A stretch of DNA of 60,475 nucleotides from Bacillota bacterium (GTDB lineage: Bacteria > Bacillota > Halanaerobiia > Halanaerobiales > DATFIM01), in the NCBI GenBank assembly GCA_051744825.1, contig JBNJDL010000001.1:1-60475 (forward strand), in the 5' to 3' direction. The notes beneath the pieces are model-generated. The model worked only from the letters and a program-made list of their open reading frames with translations, did not search any database and had not been told where the DNA came from. The position numbers and the translations under genes are program-made. Positions within the stretch are counted from its first letter, which is position 1. Every line of letters starts with the position of its first letter. Below are positions 3,285 through 60,382 of the stretch, in pieces.

Positions 3285-3332
3285 TTTTTGTGCCTCCCTT
3301 TTTTAGTGCCTCTTTTGTTACTCTCTAATTAT

Positions 3333-3361
3333 ATTATATCACGTCTGGAGCCATTTGTAAA
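3333..3361 (-). promoter_or_regulatory. Early sigma70-type promoter, family 1 copy 1 (TTTACA-N17-TATAAT)
   Basis: Minus strand: GGGGTTTACAAATGGCTCCAGACGTGATATAATATAATTAGAGAG. The spacing was counted as exactly 17 nt. An A/T-rich UP-like tract lies upstream and a conserved leader downstream. Confidence 0.75.
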
Positions 3362-3402
3362 CCCCTAAAAGCAAATTAATTCAATTATTTTTAAATTATT
3401 TT

Positions 3403-3466
3403 TTAGTCTGTCTCATCAGTGATAAGGGACTAATCTTATCAGACTGGGATCTCTCCCAGTTTCGAC
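3403..3466 (-). ncRNA. Hammerhead ribozyme motif, type II permutation, copy 2
   Basis: Minus strand: GUC-GAAAC-UGGGA-GAGA-UCCCA-GUC / UGAUAAG-AUUAGUCC-CUUAUCA-CUGAUGAG-ACAGACUAA. Loop I UUAGUC pairs with the tail GACUAA. It lies between the stop of 3479..3964 and promoter 3333..3361. Confidence 0.7.
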
Positions 3467-3478
3467 TCTATGTATTTT

Positions 3479-3964: not shown

Positions 3965-4030
3965 TTTAAAATCTCTCCTTTTGAGTTTTTGAGAATTTTT
4001 TTAATGCCTCTTTTGTTACCTTCTAATTAT

Positions 4031-4059
4031 ATTATATCGCAAATGAAGGGGTTTGTAAA
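4031..4059 (-). promoter_or_regulatory. Early promoter, family 1 copy 2
   Basis: Minus strand: GGGTTTACAAACCCCTTCATTTGCGATATAATATAATTAGAAGG, giving TTTACA-N17-TATAAT. Confidence 0.75.
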
Positions 4060-4097
4060 CCCTTTTTTGCAAGTTTTTTAAGTTTTTTTCAATTATT

Positions 4098-11691: not shown

Positions 11692-11742
11692 TTTATCCCC
11701 TCCATATTTTTATTATAACATAAATAATTGACTTTGTAAAAT

Positions 11743-12263: not shown

Positions 12264-12704
12264 TCATCCTCTAAAATGAACAGCTTCAACACCTCCGGCT
12301 TCTAAGAATTCTTTTTGATTATCATATTCATCAAAAGCTTCCATTCTATTATCATTATATTTATTGATATAAATTACTTTTTCAATTCCAGCTTGAATTA
12401 TAGCTTGACAACAATTAATACAAGGTTGATGAGTTACATAAAGAATAGCGCCTTTGGATTCTTTGCCAGCTTGGATTATCGCATTAATTTCAGCATGAAC
12501 TGCCCGATGACAATGATTATCTTCTCCAATTGCGCAACCAACATCAGTGCAGTGAGCCATATTTCTTGGAGCCCCATTATAACCAGTCCCTACTATATTA
12601 TTATTTTTAACTATCAAAGCCCCAACTGTGCCTCTTGGGCAGGTAGATCTTTCAGCTGCAGCTTTTACAATTTTTATAAAATACTCAGACCATGAAATCC
12701 TCAT
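12264..12704 (-). CDS. dCMP deaminase (cytidine/deoxycytidylate deaminase zinc-binding family)
   Basis: HAEINAI and PCINCCQAI zinc-ligand motifs with the spacing typical of dCMP deaminases. Confidence 0.85.
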   Translation of the reverse strand: MRISWSEYFIKIVKAAAERSTCPRGTVGALIVKNNNIVGTGYNGAPRNMAHCTDVGCAIGEDNHCHRAVHAEINAIIQAGKESKGAILYVTHQPCINCCQAIIQAGIEKVIYINKYNDNRMEAFDEYDNQKEFLEAGGVEAVHFRG

Positions 12705-13185
12705 ATAACTCCTCCTTTATTGATTTGATTTCCCTACTTATTGTTGATTGAGATAAATTTGTTTTATCAGCGATTTCAGATTGTGTATAATCATCTATTA
12801 ATAATTTCATAATTTCAAACTTCCTTTCATCTAATTCTTTTTTAAAATAATCTAAAGCTTCTAATTCATAATATGGATTCTCATTAGATTTTAAATATTT
12901 CATTTTATCATAACCATCTTCTTCTCTAGCTTCAACTTCACTCCAATCTATCTTAACAATATCATTTTTAGTTAACTTTTTAAGCCTATTCAATATAATT
13001 GTTTTTGCATAATTTGAAAAAGCTTTTACTGGGAAGTTTTCAAAATCAAATTTTATTGCAGCTAAAGTTAATCCATATAAAGCTTCTGAATATCTTTCCT
13101 GGTGATTAAGATTCTTAAATTTCTTACACAAAGATTTTGCTAACGGGATATATTTTATAATTAAAGTTTCCCTTCGTTCTTCCAC
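12685..13185 (-). CDS. Small sigma factor (ECF-like, regions 2 and 4 only)
   Basis: About 166 aa. Region 2-like: EALYGLTLAAIKFD. Region 4 HTH: YTQSEIADKTNLSQSTISREI. Confidence 0.6.
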   Translation of the reverse strand: MEERRETLIIKYIPLAKSLCKKFKNLNHQERYSEALYGLTLAAIKFDFENFPVKAFSNYAKTIILNRLKKLTKNDIVKIDWSEVEAREEDGYDKMKYLKSNENPYYELEALDYFKKELDERKFEIMKLLIDDYTQSEIADKTNLSQSTISREIKSIKEELYEDFMV

Positions 13186-13504: not shown

Positions 13505-13605
13505 TATCGCATGAGAAGCCGTTCTGGCCACTTTTTATTATATGAGTATTATACTATTAATATTATAATTATCATAGCCTCATCGACCTCTCACACGCTG
13601 TGCAG
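13505..13605 (-). promoter_or_regulatory. Conserved roughly 100-nt intergenic element, family 2 copy A (function unknown; contains a TATAAT box)
   Basis: Minus strand: CUGCACAGCGUGUGAGAGGUCGAUGAGG-58 nt-GCUUCUCAUGCG. The same boxes with the same 58-nt spacing recur at 25241..25340 and 57798..57896. TAGTATAAT lies at 13556..13548. Confidence 0.5.
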
Positions 13606-13752
13606 CTATTTTACAATCTCTCTTATCTGTTCATAAGCCATAGCTTTTTCAGCCTTTTCTTGTGTAGCATTCACAATATCTTTTTTGCTATTCTTAGAAT
13701 ACTTATCTTCCATTTTATCAACAATAACTTTTATTTGTTCTAATTTATTCAT
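13606..13752 (-). CDS. Small hypothetical protein (48 aa)
   Basis: ATG 13752 overlaps the stop of 13745..14083 (AAAAATGAATAA). It ends at TAG 13608..13606, directly abutting element A. Confidence 0.4.
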   Translation of the reverse strand: MNKLEQIKVIVDKMEDKYSKNSKKDIVNATQEKAEKAMAYEQIREIVK

Positions 13753-14083
13753 TTTTTGCCACCTTAATTCTGACATTCTCTTCAATAATATTTGTTAGTT
13801 TATTTGTATCAAATGTTTTTGGATCACACTTGAATTCAAATTTAGCATTTCCATCTTTATAAATTTGCAGCTTCCAGAATATATTTCTAGGTATCTCAAT
13901 CAAAGCTTCTTCATCTAACTCTTCAAATATTTTAACTTCAAAAAAATCATCAACAACCATGACAGTTTGTATTACATTAGATATTTCAGAATATGGGGCC
14001 TCAAACCTTAACTTTAAATTCCCATCACTAAAAACATCACTTTTATCAAATACTGATTCAAACTCACAAATTTCTTTTGCCAT
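13745..14083 (-). CDS. Hypothetical protein
   Basis: ORF sharing its start/stop junction with 14083..14403. Confidence 0.6.
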   Translation of the reverse strand: MAKEICEFESVFDKSDVFSDGNLKLRFEAPYSEISNVIQTVMVVDDFFEVKIFEELDEEALIEIPRNIFWKLQIYKDGNAKFEFKCDPKTFDTNKLTNIIEENVRIKVAKNE

Positions 14084-15767: not shown

Positions 15768-15822
15768 CTTAATCTCCCCTTTTTGAGTTTTTTGGGTTTT
15801 CTTATTTGCACCTTCTATATTA

Positions 15823-15851
15823 ATTATAACATGTTTCAGGGGATTTGTAAA
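15823..15851 (-). promoter_or_regulatory. Early promoter, family 1 copy 3
   Basis: Minus strand: GGGGTTTACAAATCCCCTGAAACATGTTATAATTAATATAGAAGG, giving TTTACA-N17-TATAAT. Confidence 0.7.
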
Positions 15852-15879
15852 CCCCTAAATGAAAGTTTTTTATATTTTT

Positions 15880-15945
15880 TTAATCTATCTCATCAGAGTG
15901 AAGTGATTAATCTTCACTGACTGGGAACTTAATCCCAGTTTCGAA
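15880..15945 (-). ncRNA. Hammerhead ribozyme motif, type II permutation, copy 3
   Basis: Minus strand: UUC-GAAAC-UGGGA-UUAAGU-UCCCA-GUC / AGUGAAG-AUUAAUCA-CUUCACU-CUGAUGAG-AUAGAUUAA. Loop I UUAAUC pairs with the tail GAUUAA. It starts 3 nt after the stop of 15948..16190. Confidence 0.7.
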
Positions 15946-15947
15946 TT

Positions 15948-16523: not shown

Positions 16524-16571
16524 TATTTCCACTCCTTATTTTTATCCCTTATTTTCTTACCTTCTAATTAT

Positions 16572-16600
16572 ATTATATCATGTATTGAGTAGTTTGTAAA
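16572..16600 (-). promoter_or_regulatory. Early promoter, family 1 copy 4
   Basis: Minus strand: GGGGTTTACAAACTACTCAATACATGATATAATATAATTAGAAGGTAAGAAAATAAGG. Confidence 0.75.
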
Positions 16601-16629
16601 CCCCTAAAGGCAAATTATTTTAATTATTT

Positions 16630-17100
16630 TTAACTTTTTTCTTCCATATCCCTAATAGCGGTTAATCCTATTCCAACTGCGTCAGCTGTATCTTTTTGAA
16701 TATCTTCAGTTAATCCATAAAATTCACAAATATATTTATTCATTTCATCTTTACTACATCTACCATTTCCTGTAACAACTTTTTTAACATGAGTTGGATG
16801 ATAAAATTCATATTCATCAATACCAATTTCAACAGCTTTTGTTAATACTACTCCAAAGAATATGTTCATAGTTTCTAATGATTGCCTATTTGGTCCATAA
16901 GGCTTCTCTAAAGCTAAGTGGTCAATATTTTCATACATTTTTAATAATCTGCTAAAATCTTCAGCTATCTTTTTAACTCTTTTCAAACCTGTATTTTTAT
17001 ATTTAAAATTGCCATAAGCTTTTAATTCTTCATCATCAAAAATTGCCCAACCAGTAAGATTGCCAGTTGTAGTTCCTGGATCTATACTTAAAATTCTCAT
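16630..17100 (-). CDS. ruvC: RuvC-like Holliday junction resolvase
   Basis: N-terminal ILSIDPGTTTG catalytic Asp motif. About 156 aa. A C-terminal acidic residue lies in DTADAVGIG. Confidence 0.75.
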   Translation of the reverse strand: MRILSIDPGTTTGNLTGWAIFDDEELKAYGNFKYKNTGLKRVKKIAEDFSRLLKMYENIDHLALEKPYGPNRQSLETMNIFFGVVLTKAVEIGIDEYEFYHPTHVKKVVTGNGRCSKDEMNKYICEFYGLTEDIQKDTADAVGIGLTAIRDMEEKS

Positions 17101-25169: not shown

Positions 25170-25216
25170 CCTTCATTATTATATAGGCTATAGGATTAAA
25201 AATTATTCGTCAAATT
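25170..25216 (-). promoter_or_regulatory. Promoter/operator-like element, family 3 copy c3
   Basis: Minus strand: TTGACGAATAATTTTTAATCCTATAGCCTATATAATAATGAAGGAGG. TTGACG-N15/16-TATAGC is followed by a second TATAAT box. Contains the palindrome TATAG-C-CTATA. Confidence 0.5.
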
Positions 25217-25240
25217 TAAGTTTTTCACTTTTTTATTAAA

Positions 25241-25340
25241 GCTTGTGAGAAGCCCACGAGGAAGTCTCAAAGCCTTCGAGCATTATACTATAGCAAAATA
25301 TACAATCATAGCCTCATTATTCTGTCACGAGCTCTGCGAG
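25241..25340 (-). promoter_or_regulatory. Conserved intergenic element, family 2 copy B
   Basis: Minus strand: CUCGCAGAGCUCGUGACAGAAUAAUGAGG-58 nt-GCUUCUCACAAGC. TAGTATAAT lies at 25290..25282. The upstream ORF stop (UGA) lies inside the first box. Confidence 0.5.
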
Positions 25341-25573
25341 TCTTTTAATTCCATATCTAACATATCAAATAAAGCTTTAAAATCTTCATAATTATTTACT
25401 CCAACTACAATTCCTTTTTTACTCGGCTTGTAATCTTTAGAATGTTGATCATACCAGAATTCTCTAATATCAATATATTCTTTACCATCTAATTCTGTAA
25501 TTTTAAATTTTAATATATTTCCATTATTCTTTTCCATATCACCTATAAAAATCTCATTATCCCAAAAAGCCAT
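25325..25573 (-). CDS. PC4/YdbC-like ssDNA-binding protein
   Basis: GKEYIDIREFWYD...PSKKGIVV resembles the PC4-fold block (G..Y.DIR.W....P.KKGI). Confidence 0.45.
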   Translation of the reverse strand: MAFWDNEIFIGDMEKNNGNILKFKITELDGKEYIDIREFWYDQHSKDYKPSKKGIVVGVNNYEDFKALFDMLDMELKDSQSS

Positions 25574-26607: not shown

Positions 26608-26634
26608 GAAGAAAGAGTAGCTTTTACACTACCC
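26601..26634 (-). terminator. Intrinsic terminator/attenuator-like hairpin
   Basis: Minus strand: GGGUAG-UGUAAAAG-CUACUC followed by UUUCUUCUUUGUUUU. It sits directly downstream of element c4. Confidence 0.5.
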
Positions 26635-26675
26635 TCATTATTATATAGGCTATATATCAATATTTTATTCGTCTA
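26632..26675 (-). promoter_or_regulatory. Promoter/operator-like element, family 3 copy c4 (degenerate -35)
   Basis: Minus strand: TAGACGAATAAAATATTGATATATAGCCTATATAATAATGAGGG. Confidence 0.4.
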
Positions 26676-26969
26676 TCTTAAATTTTTTCTTATATATCCT
26701 TCAAATCTTTTATAATCTCTAAAATAAGCATTTCCTTTTTTATCGTATTGGACTTTATATTCTTTAATCTTACTAACCTCAATTTTATCTAAATAATGAC
26801 TTATCTCTTGGATAAAAACAGATTCTCCAGTTTTATTGACTAAAAGCCATTCTTGAGTTCTATTATTTATATATTTGCTTGCTGTATTATCAATCTCAGA
26901 AAGATTATTGATTTCATTTTCATCCATCTTATTAAATAAATCATTTAAATTCATAGCTGTAATTTCCAT
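26673..26969 (-). CDS. Hypothetical protein
   Basis: ATG 26969 overlaps the upstream stop (TAATG) after AAGGAGTGGGAA. Confidence 0.55.
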   Translation of the reverse strand: MEITAMNLNDLFNKMDENEINNLSEIDNTASKYINNRTQEWLLVNKTGESVFIQEISHYLDKIEVSKIKEYKVQYDKKGNAYFRDYKRFEGYIRKNLR

Positions 26970-27362: not shown

Positions 27363-27411
27363 TTTATTCACTCCTTATTTTTTATTCACTTTATTCTCAC
27401 TCACTAATTAT

Positions 27412-27440
27412 ATTATATCACACTTCAAACTATTTGTAAA
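27412..27440 (-). promoter_or_regulatory. Early promoter, family 1 copy 5
   Basis: Minus strand: AGGTTTACAAATAGTTTGAAGTGTGATATAATATAATTAGTGAG. Confidence 0.7.
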
Positions 27441-27461
27441 CCTTTATTTAAAAGTTTTTTA

Positions 27462-27842
27462 TTATTTTTTATATTCCCAAAGTTTTTCTATTCTTGTTGG
27501 AGGACCGCTTAATCTAAAAACAAATCTAAAAACTTTAACAATCTGTAGATTTTCTTTATCAATTATGAACATCAACCTTGTTTTATTTTTTCTATCTTCA
27601 ATTAATGAAAATGAATCTTTTAAAGTCCCTGGATCTGTTCTAAAAACTTTAGCTGATTTTTCATCAGAATATGCTTGGAAATGTTTGTGTATAAAATTAT
27701 ATTGTTTTTTACTTGCTAATTTCCCATTATACTTACCAACAGATTTTCTTAATGAATTTAAAACATCAGATCTAGTTTCATCTACCCACTCTTGATAACT
27801 ATCCCATCTTGCTTTTGAAAGTGCATTTGGATTATAATTCAT
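27462..27842 (-). CDS. Hypothetical protein
   Basis: First ORF after promoter copy 6, with ATG 27842 after AAGGAGTGAACAAA. Confidence 0.55.
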   Translation of the reverse strand: MNYNPNALSKARWDSYQEWVDETRSDVLNSLRKSVGKYNGKLASKKQYNFIHKHFQAYSDEKSAKVFRTDPGTLKDSFSLIEDRKNKTRLMFIIDKENLQIVKVFRFVFRLSGPPTRIEKLWEYKK

Positions 27843-27892
27843 TTTGTTCACTCCTTATTTTTTTATTCCTTATTTTCTTACCTTCTAATTAT

Positions 27893-27921
27893 ATTATATC
27901 ATGTTTTCTGCACTTTGTAAA
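27893..27921 (-). promoter_or_regulatory. Early promoter, family 1 copy 6 (leftward member of a divergent pair)
   Basis: Minus strand: GGGGTTTACAAAGTGCAGAAAACATGATATAATATAATTAGAAGGTAAGAAAATAAGG. Confidence 0.75.
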
Positions 27922-27996
27922 CCCCTAATTGAAAGTTTTTTAAGTTTTTTTAAAATAAATTTTTATAAAAAAAATAAAATTAATTGCTAAAAAAGG

Positions 27997-28025
27997 TTTA
28001 CAAACCTCCTGAAACACGATATAAT
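27997..28025 (+). promoter_or_regulatory. Early promoter, family 1 copy 7 (rightward member of the divergent pair)
   Basis: Plus strand: AGGTTTACAAACCTCCTGAAACACGATATAATATAATTAGAGAGTAAC, giving TTTACA-N17-TATAAT. Confidence 0.75.
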
Positions 28026-28075
28026 ATAATTAGAGAGTAACAAAAGGGACACTAAAAAAAAGAGGAGTGAATAAA

Positions 28076-28842: not shown

Positions 28843-28914
28843 ATGTGAGTTTTTAAAATTGGACGAATAATTTTTGAATATATACCCTATATAATAAAGG
28901 GTGCTGCGGGGAAG
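28843..28914 (+). promoter_or_regulatory. Promoter/operator-like element, family 3 copy c1 (plus orientation)
   Basis: ATGTGAGTTTTTAAAATTGGACGAATAATTTTTGAATATATACCCTATATAATAAAGGGTGCTGCGGGGAAGA. Near-identical over about 70 nt to 49400..49473. Confidence 0.45.
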
Positions 28915-28950
28915 ATTATTCTCTCAAAACTATCAAATCAAGCTTTATAA

Positions 28951-42101: not shown

Positions 42102-42551
42102 TTAAGCTAATGTTGGTTGTCCAGTAACTTTTAATGTTAAGCTTGCACTTAATTTATCATCATGTGGAGCGCTAGGCTCAAATCCAGTTACAATAGCATC
42201 AAAATTCCAAGTTGTTGCGCCAGAGTTTGAAAAGACTAATTCATAATTCTTTTTAGCTCCGCCATCTAACTCTCCTAACATTCCAGAAGCAGAACTATGA
42301 GTAGATTCATCTGGAACATAATTAATATCAAAAGTCACTTCGCCACTTCTTAAGACTGTAACTACATGTTCTTCCCATCCGCCTTCATTTACAAAGGAAT
42401 CATGAGAAGTAACATCAGAAGTGTCAGCTGATAAACCTGGACCAGTTATATCAACAACCTCAGCGATTGTAGTATAAGTAGTTCCAGAAGTTCCAGCTTG
42501 ATCACCTAATTTTAATAATGTTCCACCAGCAGCTATTCCATTACTTGCCAA
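42102..42551 (-). CDS. Major tail protein, paralog 2
   Basis: Lies before the chaperones. Shares long blocks with 42567..43055 (VDITGPGLS.DTSD, GWEEHV.TVLRSGEVTFD.NYVP, VTGFEPS.PHDDK.SAS.TLK.TGQPTL). Confidence 0.7.
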   Translation of the reverse strand: MASNGIAAGGTLLKLGDQAGTSGTTYTTIAEVVDITGPGLSADTSDVTSHDSFVNEGGWEEHVVTVLRSGEVTFDINYVPDESTHSSASGMLGELDGGAKKNYELVFSNSGATTWNFDAIVTGFEPSAPHDDKLSASLTLKVTGQPTLA

Positions 42552-42566
42552 TTTATATCACCTCTC

Positions 42567-43055
42567 TTAATTTAAAGTAGGTTGCCCGGTTATTTTCAAT
42601 GTCACACTTGCACTTGACTTATCATCATGAGGATTTGAAGGCTCAAAACCTGTAACAAAAGCATCAAATTGCCATTGAGTATTTGATAAATCAGTAAATG
42701 TGATTTGAAATCCATTTTTAGTTCTATTATTTAACATATATAATAGTCCAGGGGCTTCACCTGAGCCAACAGTTGTGCTTCCTGAAGAATTATTTTGAGT
42801 CGTATTTGAAGGAACATAATTTAAATCAAAAGTAACTTCTCCAGACCTTAAAACTGTTGCAACATGTTCTTCCCAACCATTCTCAGTTGTAAAAGAATCA
42901 TGATTTGTAATATCAGAAGTATCAGATGAAAGTCCTGGACCAGTAATATCTACTATTTCAGCAATATCACTATAACCAGAACTAGCACCAGACCCTTCTT
43001 CAATATATTTTGCGCTTAAAATTGTTCCACCTGCAGCTAAACCTTTAGAAGCCAT
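42567..43055 (-). CDS. Major tail protein, paralog 1
   Basis: Same blocks as 42102..42551, plus a Ser/Gly/Thr-rich insertion (NNSSGSTTVGSGEAPG). Confidence 0.7.
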   Translation of the reverse strand: MASKGLAAGGTILSAKYIEEGSGASSGYSDIAEIVDITGPGLSSDTSDITNHDSFTTENGWEEHVATVLRSGEVTFDLNYVPSNTTQNNSSGSTTVGSGEAPGLLYMLNNRTKNGFQITFTDLSNTQWQFDAFVTGFEPSNPHDDKSSASVTLKITGQPTLN

Positions 43056-49399: not shown

Positions 49400-49473
49400 A
49401 TGTGAGTTTTTAATTTTGGACGAATAATTTTTGATTCTATAGGCTATATAATAAAGGGGCCTGCGGGGAAGAG
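49400..49473 (+). promoter_or_regulatory. Promoter/operator-like element, family 3 copy c2 (plus orientation, antisense to flanking genes)
   Basis: ATGTGAGTTTTTAATTTTGGACGAATAATTTTTGATTCTATAGGCTATATAATAAAGGGGCCTGCGGGGAAGAG. Confidence 0.45.
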
Positions 49474-56411: not shown

Positions 56412-57773
56412 CTAATTTAGATTATTAAACTGTTCCTGGACTTCATCATCTTCTTCATCTAACGGCTCTTCTTCTAAATCATTAATTGGAAGATTAAGCT
56501 CATCTCTTAATATCTTCTCAATATCAACAATAGAGCCAGCAGCTCCTTTTGCGTATTCATTAGCAGCTTTAGCTTTAGATAAGTGCATTTCAGCTTTTTC
56601 TTTATCATCAAGTTCAATAAGTTCATGCCAATTAATTTTATATTCAACTTTAGGAAGTGCGCCATATTTAATTAATCTATCAATAAATGGCCTTAAGATT
56701 GTAGGCTCAGCAAAATTAGTCTGCCTTGTTTTTATGATACTTGACCAGTTTTTAGCGTCCTGAGAAGATGATAGTTCTCCTCTTTCTGAGCCGAGTAATA
56801 TTCTTTTAGGAATACCAGTAGTTGCTGAAATTAAACTCATTATAACCTCAAAAGTAGGTTTCGGATTGGCTACACTCACACCTAAGTCTTTTAATTCTAC
56901 ACCTTGAGTTCTTACATATCTTCTTAATCCATTAAAGTATTCATCTAATTCATCTTGTAAATCTTCCATATCTTCAGTTCCTGGATCAAACTCTTCACTA
57001 ATATCAGCATGTAATCCTTTTCTAGCATTCTGCCAAAACATCTCAGGACTACCACCAGCTACTTTATATAAATCATCTAACAAATTATAAACTCTTTTTA
57101 AATCTGGCCTACCATAAATCTCATCTTCTTCTAAATTATCAGCTATATGGATAACTCTTGAATGATGGACTTTTGTAGTTTTAGACTTATCTGAATCTAA
57201 AGTATTATTCCCAATCTCAATTGAATAATATTTAGGTAGTCTAAATCTTGGATTAAATGGATCATCTTCAAAAGTATCTATATCAACTCTTCCTTGAGAA
57301 TATGGTGCTAAAAATATTATATCTTCCGGGCCGCTTAATTTAGGCATTTCATCTGACAATTTACCTTTTCCTTTTGCGCCTATTAATAACACACCAAATT
57401 CGCCAATTCTTGAAAGTTTATCAGCTCTCTTAAAATAATGTGAGATTCTTAGTCTATCTTCTAATTTATCCCAAGCTTTTTCAAACTCAGTATTCCTTTC
57501 TTCATCATCGGTTTCATGTATATCTGGCATATCTTTCCAGGTTTCATCTGCTGGAGCATCTATAATTCTGCCAGCAATATCTTGCCTTTGATATTTAGCC
57601 ATATAATTATTAAAAGCTATTTTATCTTTATAACCGAATGTATCATAATAATCTCTATTACCTTCAAATGACTGACCGAGATAACCGGCTAAAGTTTTTC
57701 TAGCAAGCAATGTTGTGTTCTGTATTAGTTTATTGAATTGAGATTTATTCATTTTAATTTCTTTATCGCTCAA
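56412..57773 (-). CDS. Portal protein
   Basis: 453 aa, directly after the large terminase. Acidic C-terminus. TTG start after AAGGTGGTG. Confidence 0.75.
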   Translation of the reverse strand: MSDKEIKMNKSQFNKLIQNTTLLARKTLAGYLGQSFEGNRDYYDTFGYKDKIAFNNYMAKYQRQDIAGRIIDAPADETWKDMPDIHETDDEERNTEFEKAWDKLEDRLRISHYFKRADKLSRIGEFGVLLIGAKGKGKLSDEMPKLSGPEDIIFLAPYSQGRVDIDTFEDDPFNPRFRLPKYYSIEIGNNTLDSDKSKTTKVHHSRVIHIADNLEEDEIYGRPDLKRVYNLLDDLYKVAGGSPEMFWQNARKGLHADISEEFDPGTEDMEDLQDELDEYFNGLRRYVRTQGVELKDLGVSVANPKPTFEVIMSLISATTGIPKRILLGSERGELSSSQDAKNWSSIIKTRQTNFAEPTILRPFIDRLIKYGALPKVEYKINWHELIELDDKEKAEMHLSKAKAANEYAKGAAGSIVDIEKILRDELNLPINDLEEEPLDEEDDEVQEQFNNLN

Positions 57774-57797
57774 ATAATTTCACCACCTTATATACAA

Positions 57798-57896
57798 AGC
57801 TGTGAGAAGCTCTATATGGAGTTTTATAGTCTAAGTAGTATATTAATACTTATATAAGCTTAAAATGTCCTCATCAATCTTACACAAGCTGTGCGG
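57798..57896 (-). promoter_or_regulatory. Conserved intergenic element, family 2 copy C (between large terminase and portal)
   Basis: Minus strand: CCGCACAGCUUGUGUAAGAUUGAUGAGG-58 nt-GCUUCUCACAGC. Confidence 0.5.
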
Positions 57897-57926: not shown

Positions 57927-59354
57927 TTAACTGCCCCATGTAATTCTTGACTTTTTATTCCTAACTCTATCAGCTAATCCTGTTAAACTATCAGGAGCAT
58001 CATCATGTTTATTTTTGCCTGCTTTAGAATATGTCAAAAATTGCTGCATGAATTTATCATAAGGACTTCCTTCTTCATAATCTTTCCTAAAATAGAAGTT
58101 CTCTTTTATAAATCCAGATTGCATTAGAATTCTTGTTTCCTTATTTCTAGTCTCAGCTCTGGAATTAACATTACAATAATAATTGCTCTGATGTAATAAT
58201 TCCTTTATATCTTTAGCAAATATTCTGCCCCCGTTATTGGATTCAATAGTTACATCTTCTATATCATTATTTATAATTGATTGAACAACAAGCGGCTCAC
58301 TAATTTCAACTGGCTCCTGAGTAAAAACTACATCTGTTATAAAATACTTACCTTTTATTTTTTTAGCTATTGGGAACGATAAAAAGTCAGTGCCTTCATC
58401 TGCTGTATCACAAAAACCAATAATTGCATCCGGCTTATGATTCTTAATATCTTCTAAATTAAATCTGTTCAACTCATCTTGCTTAAATAATAAGCCTTTA
58501 GCTTCAATTGGATTTTGCATCCACTCAGCTTGCCAAATCATATCATCATTTATTTTCTTCTCTTCTAACAATTCTTCTTTAGAATGAGCAGCTTCACAAT
58601 AAGACTTGCCATCTATAATAGCAGGGATTACAATTTTTTCAGCATCCGGTGAATCAAAATAATCATCTTGAATTAACTTTCCTGGTATATCATTAACTGA
58701 CCACCTAGTTGCTATATGAATTTCAGGGCAACCTTTTTCTTTCCTGGATCTGTGAGTTGATGTATACCAATCCCACTTTTTGTTAAGTGTATTCTCATTC
58801 ATTGCCTCTTCCCAGTTTTTAACTGAGTCATCTAAGATTGCAACTTTACTACAACCAAAGCCAATAATTGAGCCACCAACACCAGCACCAAAATATGATA
58901 CTCCCTTTTGGGATTGTTTTAACTTCCAGCCATCTACTTTATCAACACTAAACTTAATTTGCGGAAATATTTCTTTGTATTTATTATCATGAGTTTCCCC
59001 TTGCATTATATCTCTACAATCCGTGGAGAACTTAGAATAAAGTGTAGCTGTTACTGTATTCCGCATGATTGAGCCTGTTGGATCTCTCCCTAAACTCCAA
59101 GCAGCAAATAAAGTTGTTATATAAGATTTGCCAGTTCTAGGAGGCATTGCTACATATAATAAATTAAGATTGCCTTCTTCAATTCTTTGGAAAGCCTCAG
59201 CTACTGGTTTTAAGATTGAACTCCTATTATAAAAGAATTCATAATCCATATATAAGCAGAAGTCCCAAAAGTTTTCATAAGCTTCTAGCTGCTTAAGCTC
59301 TCTAAAATCTTTATCAAGTTTTATCAGCTCATAAAATTCTTCATGATTTAACAT
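57927..59354 (-). CDS. terL: Terminase large subunit
   Basis: 475 aa. Walker A-like PPRTGKS. Acidic nuclease half with C-terminal HDDAPD. Lies after the small subunit. Confidence 0.85.
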   Translation of the reverse strand: MLNHEEFYELIKLDKDFRELKQLEAYENFWDFCLYMDYEFFYNRSSILKPVAEAFQRIEEGNLNLLYVAMPPRTGKSYITTLFAAWSLGRDPTGSIMRNTVTATLYSKFSTDCRDIMQGETHDNKYKEIFPQIKFSVDKVDGWKLKQSQKGVSYFGAGVGGSIIGFGCSKVAILDDSVKNWEEAMNENTLNKKWDWYTSTHRSRKEKGCPEIHIATRWSVNDIPGKLIQDDYFDSPDAEKIVIPAIIDGKSYCEAAHSKEELLEEKKINDDMIWQAEWMQNPIEAKGLLFKQDELNRFNLEDIKNHKPDAIIGFCDTADEGTDFLSFPIAKKIKGKYFITDVVFTQEPVEISEPLVVQSIINNDIEDVTIESNNGGRIFAKDIKELLHQSNYYCNVNSRAETRNKETRILMQSGFIKENFYFRKDYEEGSPYDKFMQQFLTYSKAGKNKHDDAPDSLTGLADRVRNKKSRITWGS

Positions 59355-60221: not shown

Positions 60222-60297
60222 TGGTTGCGGCAGGCAGATTCGAACTGCCAGCTTTGGGATATGAACCCAACGAGTTAAACCGTTACTCTATGCCGCT
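60222..60297 (-). tRNA. tRNA-Met (CAU), initiator-like
   Basis: Hand-folded 76-nt cloverleaf with encoded CCA. Anticodon loop UUCAUAU. GGG:CCC closes the anticodon stem. A11:U24 pair. Position 1:72 is an A-A mismatch. Confidence 0.8.
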
Positions 60298-60305
60298 AAA
60301 TTTTA

Positions 60306-60382
60306 TGGAGCTGGGAATGAGATTTGAACTCATAACCTGCTATTTACAAAACAGCTGCTCTTCCAAATTGAGCTATCCCAGC
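60306..60382 (-). tRNA. tRNA-Thr (UGU)
   Basis: Hand-folded 77-nt cloverleaf. Acceptor GCUGGGA/UCCCAGC. Anticodon loop UUUGUAA. T-loop UUCAAAU. CCA is encoded. Confidence 0.8.

Follow-up and report, generated by a model that had tools for sequence, protein, structure and literature searches.

The DNA analysed here, which we call the window, is a 60,475-nt segment of the genome of an uncultured low-GC phage (29% GC), and its minus strand bears nearly all of the genes.

Three intergenic copies at gene-block borders

Three intergenic sites on the minus strand carry the same set of short boxes, as the first-pass annotation of this DNA had claimed. A search for ATGAGG followed after 45 to 75 nt by GCTTCTCA returned three matches in the window, at 13512-13583 (copy A), 25246-25317 (copy B), and 57803-57874 (copy C). 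All are on the minus strand and all have a gap of 58 nt, which confirms the exact spacing described earlier; none of 100 dinucleotide shuffles contained a match. The only occurrences of GCTTCTCA in the window are those in the three copies, and a search for a fourth intergenic copy, allowing up to two mismatches in total and gaps of 50 to 66 nt, found none in the window. Set in the same register, copies A, B, and C share the fuller pattern GCAsAGC-nn-GTG-nnAGnnnn-ATGAGG-N58-GCTTCTCA, and the 5' part is more regular than first described. Conservation is patchy, with 8/8 and 6/6 invariant positions beside stretches of identical length at random-level identity. Positions 61 to 84 are among the latter (copies A and B are unrelated there), yet the box-to-box distance stays at 58 nt.

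The whole module of copy A occupies 13505..13605 on the minus strand and scores 111 bits with covariance model R1. We number it from 13603 as element position 1, so that position p corresponds to 13604 - p. Its 5' box, GCACAGCGTGTGAGAGGTCG (13584..13603), contributes positions 7 to 20 as the 5' strand of a helix, P1, and is followed by the ATGAGG box (13578..13583), placed by both pattern search and folding. The 3' arm, CGGCTTCTCATGCG (13508..13521), contains the invariant GCTTCTCA (13512-13519) and supplies the 3' strand of P1. In a second helix, P2, the last GG of the ATGAGG box and the next CUAU pair with GUGGCC at 13526-13531. As noted before, copy A starts directly after a stop codon, the TAG of the open reading frame (ORF) at 13606-13785, and lies ahead of a sigma-like gene; downstream are an 80-aa ORF, the sigma-like protein (12685-13185), a dCMP deaminase, and a ribonucleotide reductase. 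The sigma-like protein, encoded on the minus strand, matches PHROG sigma-factor families and, below threshold, Pfam region 4. A set of 5.8 billion proteins contains just two relatives (82% and 54% identity), and GenBank phages have none; by these counts, the family is unusually isolated for a putative sigma factor.

Copy B (25238..25337, minus strand; 95.7 bits) has its ATGAGG at 25312-25317, a TATAAT at 25282-25287, and GCTTCTCA at 25246-25253. Its 5' box shares sequence with the end of the ORF at 25325-25573 (the final codons and the stop), and the genes downstream encode an 86-aa HTH protein, primase, SSB, PolIII-alpha, RecA, and RuvC. The overlapped ORF, also on the minus strand, encodes an 82-aa protein (GKEYIDIREFWY...KPSKKGI) whose sole database match is a weak one to a PHROG "transcriptional regulator"; its sequence reads like that of a PC4/YdbC-type single-strand DNA-binding transcriptional cofactor.

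Copy C (57795..57894, minus strand; 85.2 bits) has ATGAGG at 57869-57874, TATACT at 57837-57842, and GCTTCTCA at 57803-57810, and it sits between TerL (57927-59354) and the portal gene (56412-57773). All three copies thus lie at borders of gene blocks: sigma and nucleotide metabolism; HTH, primase, PolIII-alpha, and RecA; and the TerL-portal junction. A terminator scan found no terminator-like sites upstream of copies A, B, and C, so upstream transcription should run into each of them. Two further features belong to this part of the map. Genes for tRNA-Met(CAT) and tRNA-Thr(TGT) lie at 60222-60297 and 60306-60382 on the minus strand, upstream of the small terminase gene. In the structural block, the adjacent ORFs 42102-42551 and 42567-43055 contain stretches of 73-76% identical DNA (repeat families D3 and D6) and look like a tandem gene duplication.

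The TerL-portal junction could be compared with those of five metagenomic phages related by TerL (L124, L129, L131, L132, and L133; 55-62% identity). In these, TerL abuts the portal gene with gaps of 13-38 nt and the element is absent from the junction in 5/5; it is also absent from the closest GenBank phage, MT835752 (46% TerL identity). Because TerL abuts portal in the relatives, we read copy C as a lineage-specific insertion. Wider searches found no further copies. Exact-pattern scans of viral contigs (five patterns), genome contigs (three), and metagenome contigs (one) gave nothing or chance matches, which fell in GC-rich coding DNA. Comparison of the 12-27 kb stretch with GenBank phages by megablast gave no matches, and distant blastn of copy A against phages returned AT-rich noise alone. 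The copies had no Rfam match, either at gathering score or at E values up to 10, and no signature of a known ribozyme or riboswitch class, in agreement with the first-pass annotation. The hammerhead model did find matches elsewhere in the window, showing that the Rfam search itself worked.

RNA folding at the copies and their relatives

The 5' box had been predicted to pair with the 3' box and so enclose the module. This pairing is strong in copy A, where 11-14 bp give a duplex of -22.7 kcal/mol that none of 2000 shuffles equalled (P < 0.0005), but not in copy B (10 bp with one mismatch, P about 0.10) or copy C (about 5 bp plus fragments, P about 0.09). Folding of the whole element gave z-scores of -3.60 for A (-31.6 kcal/mol), -0.16 for B (not significant), and -1.93 for C. 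With 14 + 6 bp, the helix of copy A reaches the minimum of about 20 bp for an RNase III-type hairpin, and copies B and C fall short of it. In longer sequence context, the boxes of copy C pair with other partners. Two features are common to all three copies: pair 16-87 is G-U, and AUGAGG can pair with UCUCA. Copies A, B, and C show no copy-specific covariation; their non-cognate 5' and 3' boxes pair as well as cognate ones. The 3' box has no other complementary copy in the window, and we rejected an antisense partner on this ground.

Orthologues of copy A were reached through the sigma-like and 80-aa proteins, which led to syntenic contigs; the orthologous locus is the intergenic region between a 51/52-aa ORF and the 80-aa ORF. 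The closest relative, L137, has the 5' box GCAGAGCTTGTGAGAAGTCG, then TTGAGC replacing ATGAGG, then exactly 58 nt, then GCCTCTCA. L135, whose locus is incomplete at the contig, has the same 3' half. In L136, AGAAUGCAC pairs with GUGUAUUCU and UUCUCA is retained. Contigs L138-141 and L146-148, which are mutually identical, have GAUAGC/GCUAUC and a 16-bp helix, and L142-144, also mutually identical, have a 14-bp helix and AGAAU/AUUCU. AUGAGG is kept in none of L137, L136, L138, and L142. In L145 the copy-A locus is without the element and the gap between the genes is zero. The same contig contains, at 1776-2028, a 250-nt GC-richer intergenic stretch (GGGGGTCGC...GCCCTGCCCCC) that looks like a structured RNA and gave no match in a permissive Rfam search.

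The orthologues fold with z-scores of -5.78 (L137), -6.51 (L138), -5.23 (L142), and -1.14 (L136). Those of L137, L138, and L142 are coding-strand rods with a 20-29 bp helix, and their stem sequences differ. L138 and L142 align without gaps, and their 16-pair helix is 93.8% paired, versus 22-47% with a slid partner, with two double and four one-sided compatible changes. Copy A has AUGAGGCU where L137 has UUGAGCUU, and the opposite side of P2 has changed to match, giving two double changes (G-C to C-G and C-G to U-A). Over the four alignable sequences, 69.9% of cells are paired versus 33-50% when slid, with shuffle controls that are not significant; the sample sizes behind all of this compensatory-change evidence are tiny. 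In 6/7 variants, the coding strand gives a more stable fold than the reverse complement. The long-range helices hold 14 G-U pairs versus 3 A-C mismatches, a count biased by the choice of helices by energy. From the orthologue z-scores, the compensatory changes, and the strand bias, we conclude that a predicted coding-strand RNA hairpin is under selection at the copy-A locus.

The first-pass annotation had proposed a covariance-model search and had staked its reading on homologous phages keeping the boxes and spacing. A model of the four alignable copies, run over 177 kb of related loci, recovered its own training sequences and the partial L135 alone. The closest relative keeps both boxes and spacing, whereas the distant ones keep the hairpin architecture alone. 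The suggestion of RNA processing or antitermination on read-through transcripts is strengthened by the conserved, compensated hairpins at locus A but not by copies B and C, which lack a significant fold.

Promoter-like interior and accompanying repeats

A -10-like block lies in the middle of the element. It reads TATAAT in A and B, GATAAT in L137, TATACT in C, and TATAAA in L136, and in the more distant relatives TGgTATATA (L138) and TGaTATAAG (L142). The string GCTATGAT-N17-TATAAT in A and B and the shifted block in C read as described before, the latter displaced by 2 nt (+2) within the fixed 58 nt. The loops of L138 and L142 share TTGAyT-N18-TACATT and TGnTATA. A second -10-like hexamer often follows 4-8 nt after the first, giving a tandem pair in 6/7 variants, an arrangement that we take to resemble the sigma-dependent pause sites of Q-dependent promoters.

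In a promoter consensus scan, copy A had a sigma70-like match of 10/12, ATGATA-16-TATAAT (13548..13575, minus strand). It alone passed the threshold, with B and C below, and such matches were equally frequent in shuffles. Because promoter matches are at chance level in 29% GC DNA, our promoter call draws on conservation and not on score. For the idea of a promoter flanked by an inverted-repeat operator, the support lies in the conserved -10-like interior. As for a phage-sigma promoter, nothing ties the element to the phage sigma-like protein. We rejected three other readings of the interior and its surroundings: a sigma54 promoter, for want of GG/GC doublets; a T4 MotA-box promoter downstream of GCTTCTCA, as copy C is too tight before the ribosome-binding site (RBS); and a leader peptide, as A and B have 8-codon mini-ORFs with a Shine-Dalgarno spacing of 2 nt and C has none.

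The same genome carries type II hammerhead ribozymes. Two on the minus strand, at 2506-2574 (44.3 bits) and 3402-3467 (40.3 bits), match RF02276 (gathering score, 37) when permissive filters are used. A putative third at 15878-15947 (minus strand), with the same core, and another putative one in relative L136 (309-412) were recognised by eye. The core order is CGAAAC, stem III, GUC, stem I, and CUGAUGAG, and loop I and the 3' tail form a covarying pseudoknot (UAGGCU/AGCCUA, UUAGUC/GACUAA, and AUUAAUC/GAUUAA). Copies A, B, and C are not hammerheads themselves; the CUGAUGA / GAAA / GUC core is absent, and copy B reads AAUGAGG. A K-turn or C/D box, raised by a chance SNORD34 match, was rejected as well, since the opposing strand is without GA.

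Each hammerhead follows a stop codon, and two lie directly upstream of early-type promoters of a TTTACA-N17-TATAAT family. This family of near-consensus sigma70-type repeats has copies at 3299-3396, 3997-4094, 15789-15886, 16538-16635, 27378-27475, 27859-27956, and 11692-11742, and on the plus strand at about 27960-28060. They read (GGGG)TTTACAAA-N13-GATATAAT, followed by a conserved leader, ATAATTAGAAGGTAA, and some have a GGGG...CCCC stem around the -35. They are probably host-RNAP early promoters. A scan for the early-promoter sequence returned unrelated bacterial promoters alone. Given hammerheads directly upstream of sigma70-type promoters, this phage seems habitually to cut transcripts that read through into its internal promoters.

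A third promoter-like repeat, GACGAATAATTTTT-N-CTATATAATAA, faces genes on the minus strand at 25170-25225 and 26632-26687. Copies facing the other way lie on the plus strand at 28843-28915 and 49400-49472; they are 89% identical to each other, are followed by GGGGCCTGCGGGGAAGA, and may be antisense or small-RNA promoters. Another promoter-like repeat, GACGAATAA...CTATATAAT, comes after copy B, and the genes downstream could be transcribed from it.

A proposed processing hairpin around a promoter, and its rivals

The explanation that we favour, tentatively, is a junction cassette in which a hairpin of about 20 bp on read-through transcripts, serving RNase III-type processing or RNA stability, is wrapped around a weak sigma70-like promoter. 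On RNA coming from upstream genes, the 5' and 3' boxes would pair as P1. In copy A, the end of AUGAGG would also pair, as P2, with a stretch that contains CC and lies about 8 nt ahead of the 3' box, and the two helices together would make an irregular hairpin of some 20 bp, or roughly two turns of helix. A double-strand-specific endonuclease of the RNase III type would cut this hairpin, or the hairpin would act in stability. Either role would separate the fate of the upstream cistrons from that of the block downstream, like hammerheads cutting just upstream of early promoters. At the DNA level, the AT-rich interior would act as a weak sigma70-like promoter and restart transcription; its -10 (TATAAT/TATACT) is good and its -35 poor. 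Transcripts from this internal promoter would carry the 3' arm alone, with a small variable hairpin and GCUUCUCA at about +10 to +29. Cleavage, promoter activity, and the reason for the fixed boxes and 58-nt spacing in B and C are points that we infer.

Known systems offer partial precedents. Like the early and late RNase III sites of T7 and the SP82 sites in Bacillus, the element is intercistronic, lies right after a stop codon, has an irregular hairpin of about two turns with internal loops, and occurs in several sequence-related copies per genome. Several T7 RNase III sites are reported to have a phage promoter some tens of bases away or closer. Unlike in the T7 and SP82 sites, the arms here enclose 40-70 nt of AT-rich promoter-like sequence rather than a small loop, a convincing rod is found in copy A and its orthologues alone, and cleavage is predicted. 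An idealised RNase III substrate is a helix of about 22 bp, and the T7 early region has five such signals; single-strand cuts at RNase III sites leave stabilising 3' hairpins, and 3' hairpins are stability determinants (PMC3867540).

The second precedent is the PeSL or PmSL of T4-type phages, short repeated intergenic cassettes of a promoter and a stem-loop (PMC2839356, PMC4122927). As with this element, the PeSL consensus changes from one phage group to the next, and PeSLs sit at junctions prone to indels (PMC4122927, PMC2839356). Our element is likewise a repeated cassette between gene modules, with a putative sigma70-like promoter and a stem-loop and with indels among relatives: there are three copies, C is absent in the TerL relatives, and locus A is empty in L145. 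However, PeSLs come in many copies, each with a small terminator-like stem-loop next to a near-consensus early promoter, whereas here a long-range stem without a U-tract wraps a putative weak promoter, in three copies. The promoter-like region lies between the arms, the scan found no terminator-like sites, and the near-consensus early promoters of this genome are a separate repeat family. The element most likely works like T7 RNase III sites and PeSL cassettes, as a lineage-specific variant of a known design and not as a new ribozyme or riboswitch. We do not assign it to either class, because one PeSL feature, the small stem of terminator type beside the promoter, is missing and RNase III cleavage is a prediction.

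The preferred reading also has to account for copies B and C, which keep the boxes and spacing without a significant fold and so imply that something sequence-specific is read as well. An RNA stem alone predicts neither invariant boxes nor an exact 58-nt distance, while a two-sided sequence-specific reader predicts both. For this reason, a DNA-level regulated promoter keeps substantial weight, even if we consider it less probable than the hairpin cassette and unlikely on balance. Here the boxes would be putative protein-binding sites (a CAC-N5-GTG dyad near -56, ATGAGG near -40, and GCTTCTCA near +25), from which a regulator would activate the weak promoter or repress it by bridging. The HTH protein after copy B, the PC4-like protein before copy B, and the sigma-like protein after copy A are candidates, and copies A and B adjoin such regulator genes, but the candidate sigma-like protein is without characterised relatives. 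The boxes and exact 58 nt are kept in A, B, C, and L137 while positions 61 to 84 are random, and the 2-nt move of the -10 of copy C inside a fixed distance fits protein-DNA geometry better than an RNA stem. ATGAGG aligns with the -35-like TTGAGC, TTGACT, or TTGATT of relatives; however, it stands 24 nt from TATAAT, beyond the -35 distance, and 67 bp (about 6.4 turns) separate the centres of the half-sites, which puts them out of phase. The arms also covary between phages instead of staying constant, G-U is favoured on the coding strand, and the G-U pair 16-87 of the three copies would be a conserved mismatch at the DNA level.

A nut/put-type antitermination leader appears improbable. In such a leader, the small variable hairpin and the single-stranded GCUUCUCA would load host Nus factors or a phage protein, so that RNA polymerase passes the terminator-like hairpins of the long downstream operons. 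Lambda-type nut sites share with the element a small variable hairpin adjoining a conserved single-stranded box of high pyrimidine content, near the start of a long operon. In five variants, the box is immediately preceded by a short hairpin of differing sequence (GGCC/GGCU, CCU/GGG, CUC/GAG, CUG/CAG, and UGCAC/GUGUA), and the box resembles boxA in being rich in pyrimidines. Copy C stands at the head of a block of about 28 kb, with terminator-like hairpins at about 48.5, 45.0, and 42.1 kb, and the tandem -10-like hexamers would suit this model too. However, GCUUCUCA differs from the boxA consensus, GCUCUUUA, the small hairpins are not in one register, and L138 and L142 lack a comparable hairpin and box. 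An unsystematic look recognised no N-like or Q-like gene. The model also requires a real internal promoter, which is predicted here, and leaves the conserved 5' box unexplained.

We give similarly little credence to the view that the copies and the hairpins of the relatives form an undescribed class of cis-acting RNA, self-acting or read by a dedicated phage or host factor. The boxes and 58-nt geometry would then be a three-dimensional or protein-bound core, and the element would work with the hammerheads to divide the long transcripts of the phage into units. A new self-cleaving or ligand- or protein-sensing RNA, a hammerhead companion in the RAGATH sense with the boxes as core and the 58 nt as scaffold, is still less probable. 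Like the type II hammerheads of this genome, the element is on the coding strand directly after a stop codon and upstream of a promoter or RBS, and it shares the string GAUGAG; three hammerheads occupy such equivalent positions. Its conserved nucleotides are clustered, its length is fixed, and AUGAGG/UCUCA is pairable in every copy. Against this are the missing Rfam match even at E up to 10, the loss of AUGAGG in L137, L136, L138, and L142, the inconsistent folds of B and C, and the near-perfect rods of L138 and L142, which are without conserved junctions and unlike known catalytic cores.

The least probable reading is a mobile or duplicated regulatory cassette, with repeated ends promoting recombination and module shuffling, as proposed for PeSLs, and boxes that reflect recent copying or gene conversion: the insertion of copy C, the empty locus in L145, and the few changes in the boxes of L137 fit it, but sharply patchy conservation indicates selection over recent copying, there are no target-site duplications and no terminal repeats at true ends, and exact-pattern scans found no other copies in public collections. 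A MITE or inverton was rejected, being without terminal repeats at true ends, target duplication, or a recombinase; the repeats are imperfect and in B and C depend on G-U, the segment is about 70 bp, and no recombinase or invertase was seen among the subset of ORFs scanned.

If the preferred reading, a processing or stability hairpin around a weak promoter, is true, this phage would split its nearly single-strand 60-kb transcription map in two ways, with self-cleaving hammerheads at certain junctions and, elsewhere, with host-cleaved or stabilising hairpins around internal promoters. The element would then be a compact natural coupling of transcription restart with the cutting or marking of read-through RNA, and it might offer short insulator parts for low-GC hosts. 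The fixed 58-nt geometry and the invariant boxes in the unfolded copies point to a sequence-specific reader, and finding that reader would be the most interesting outcome.
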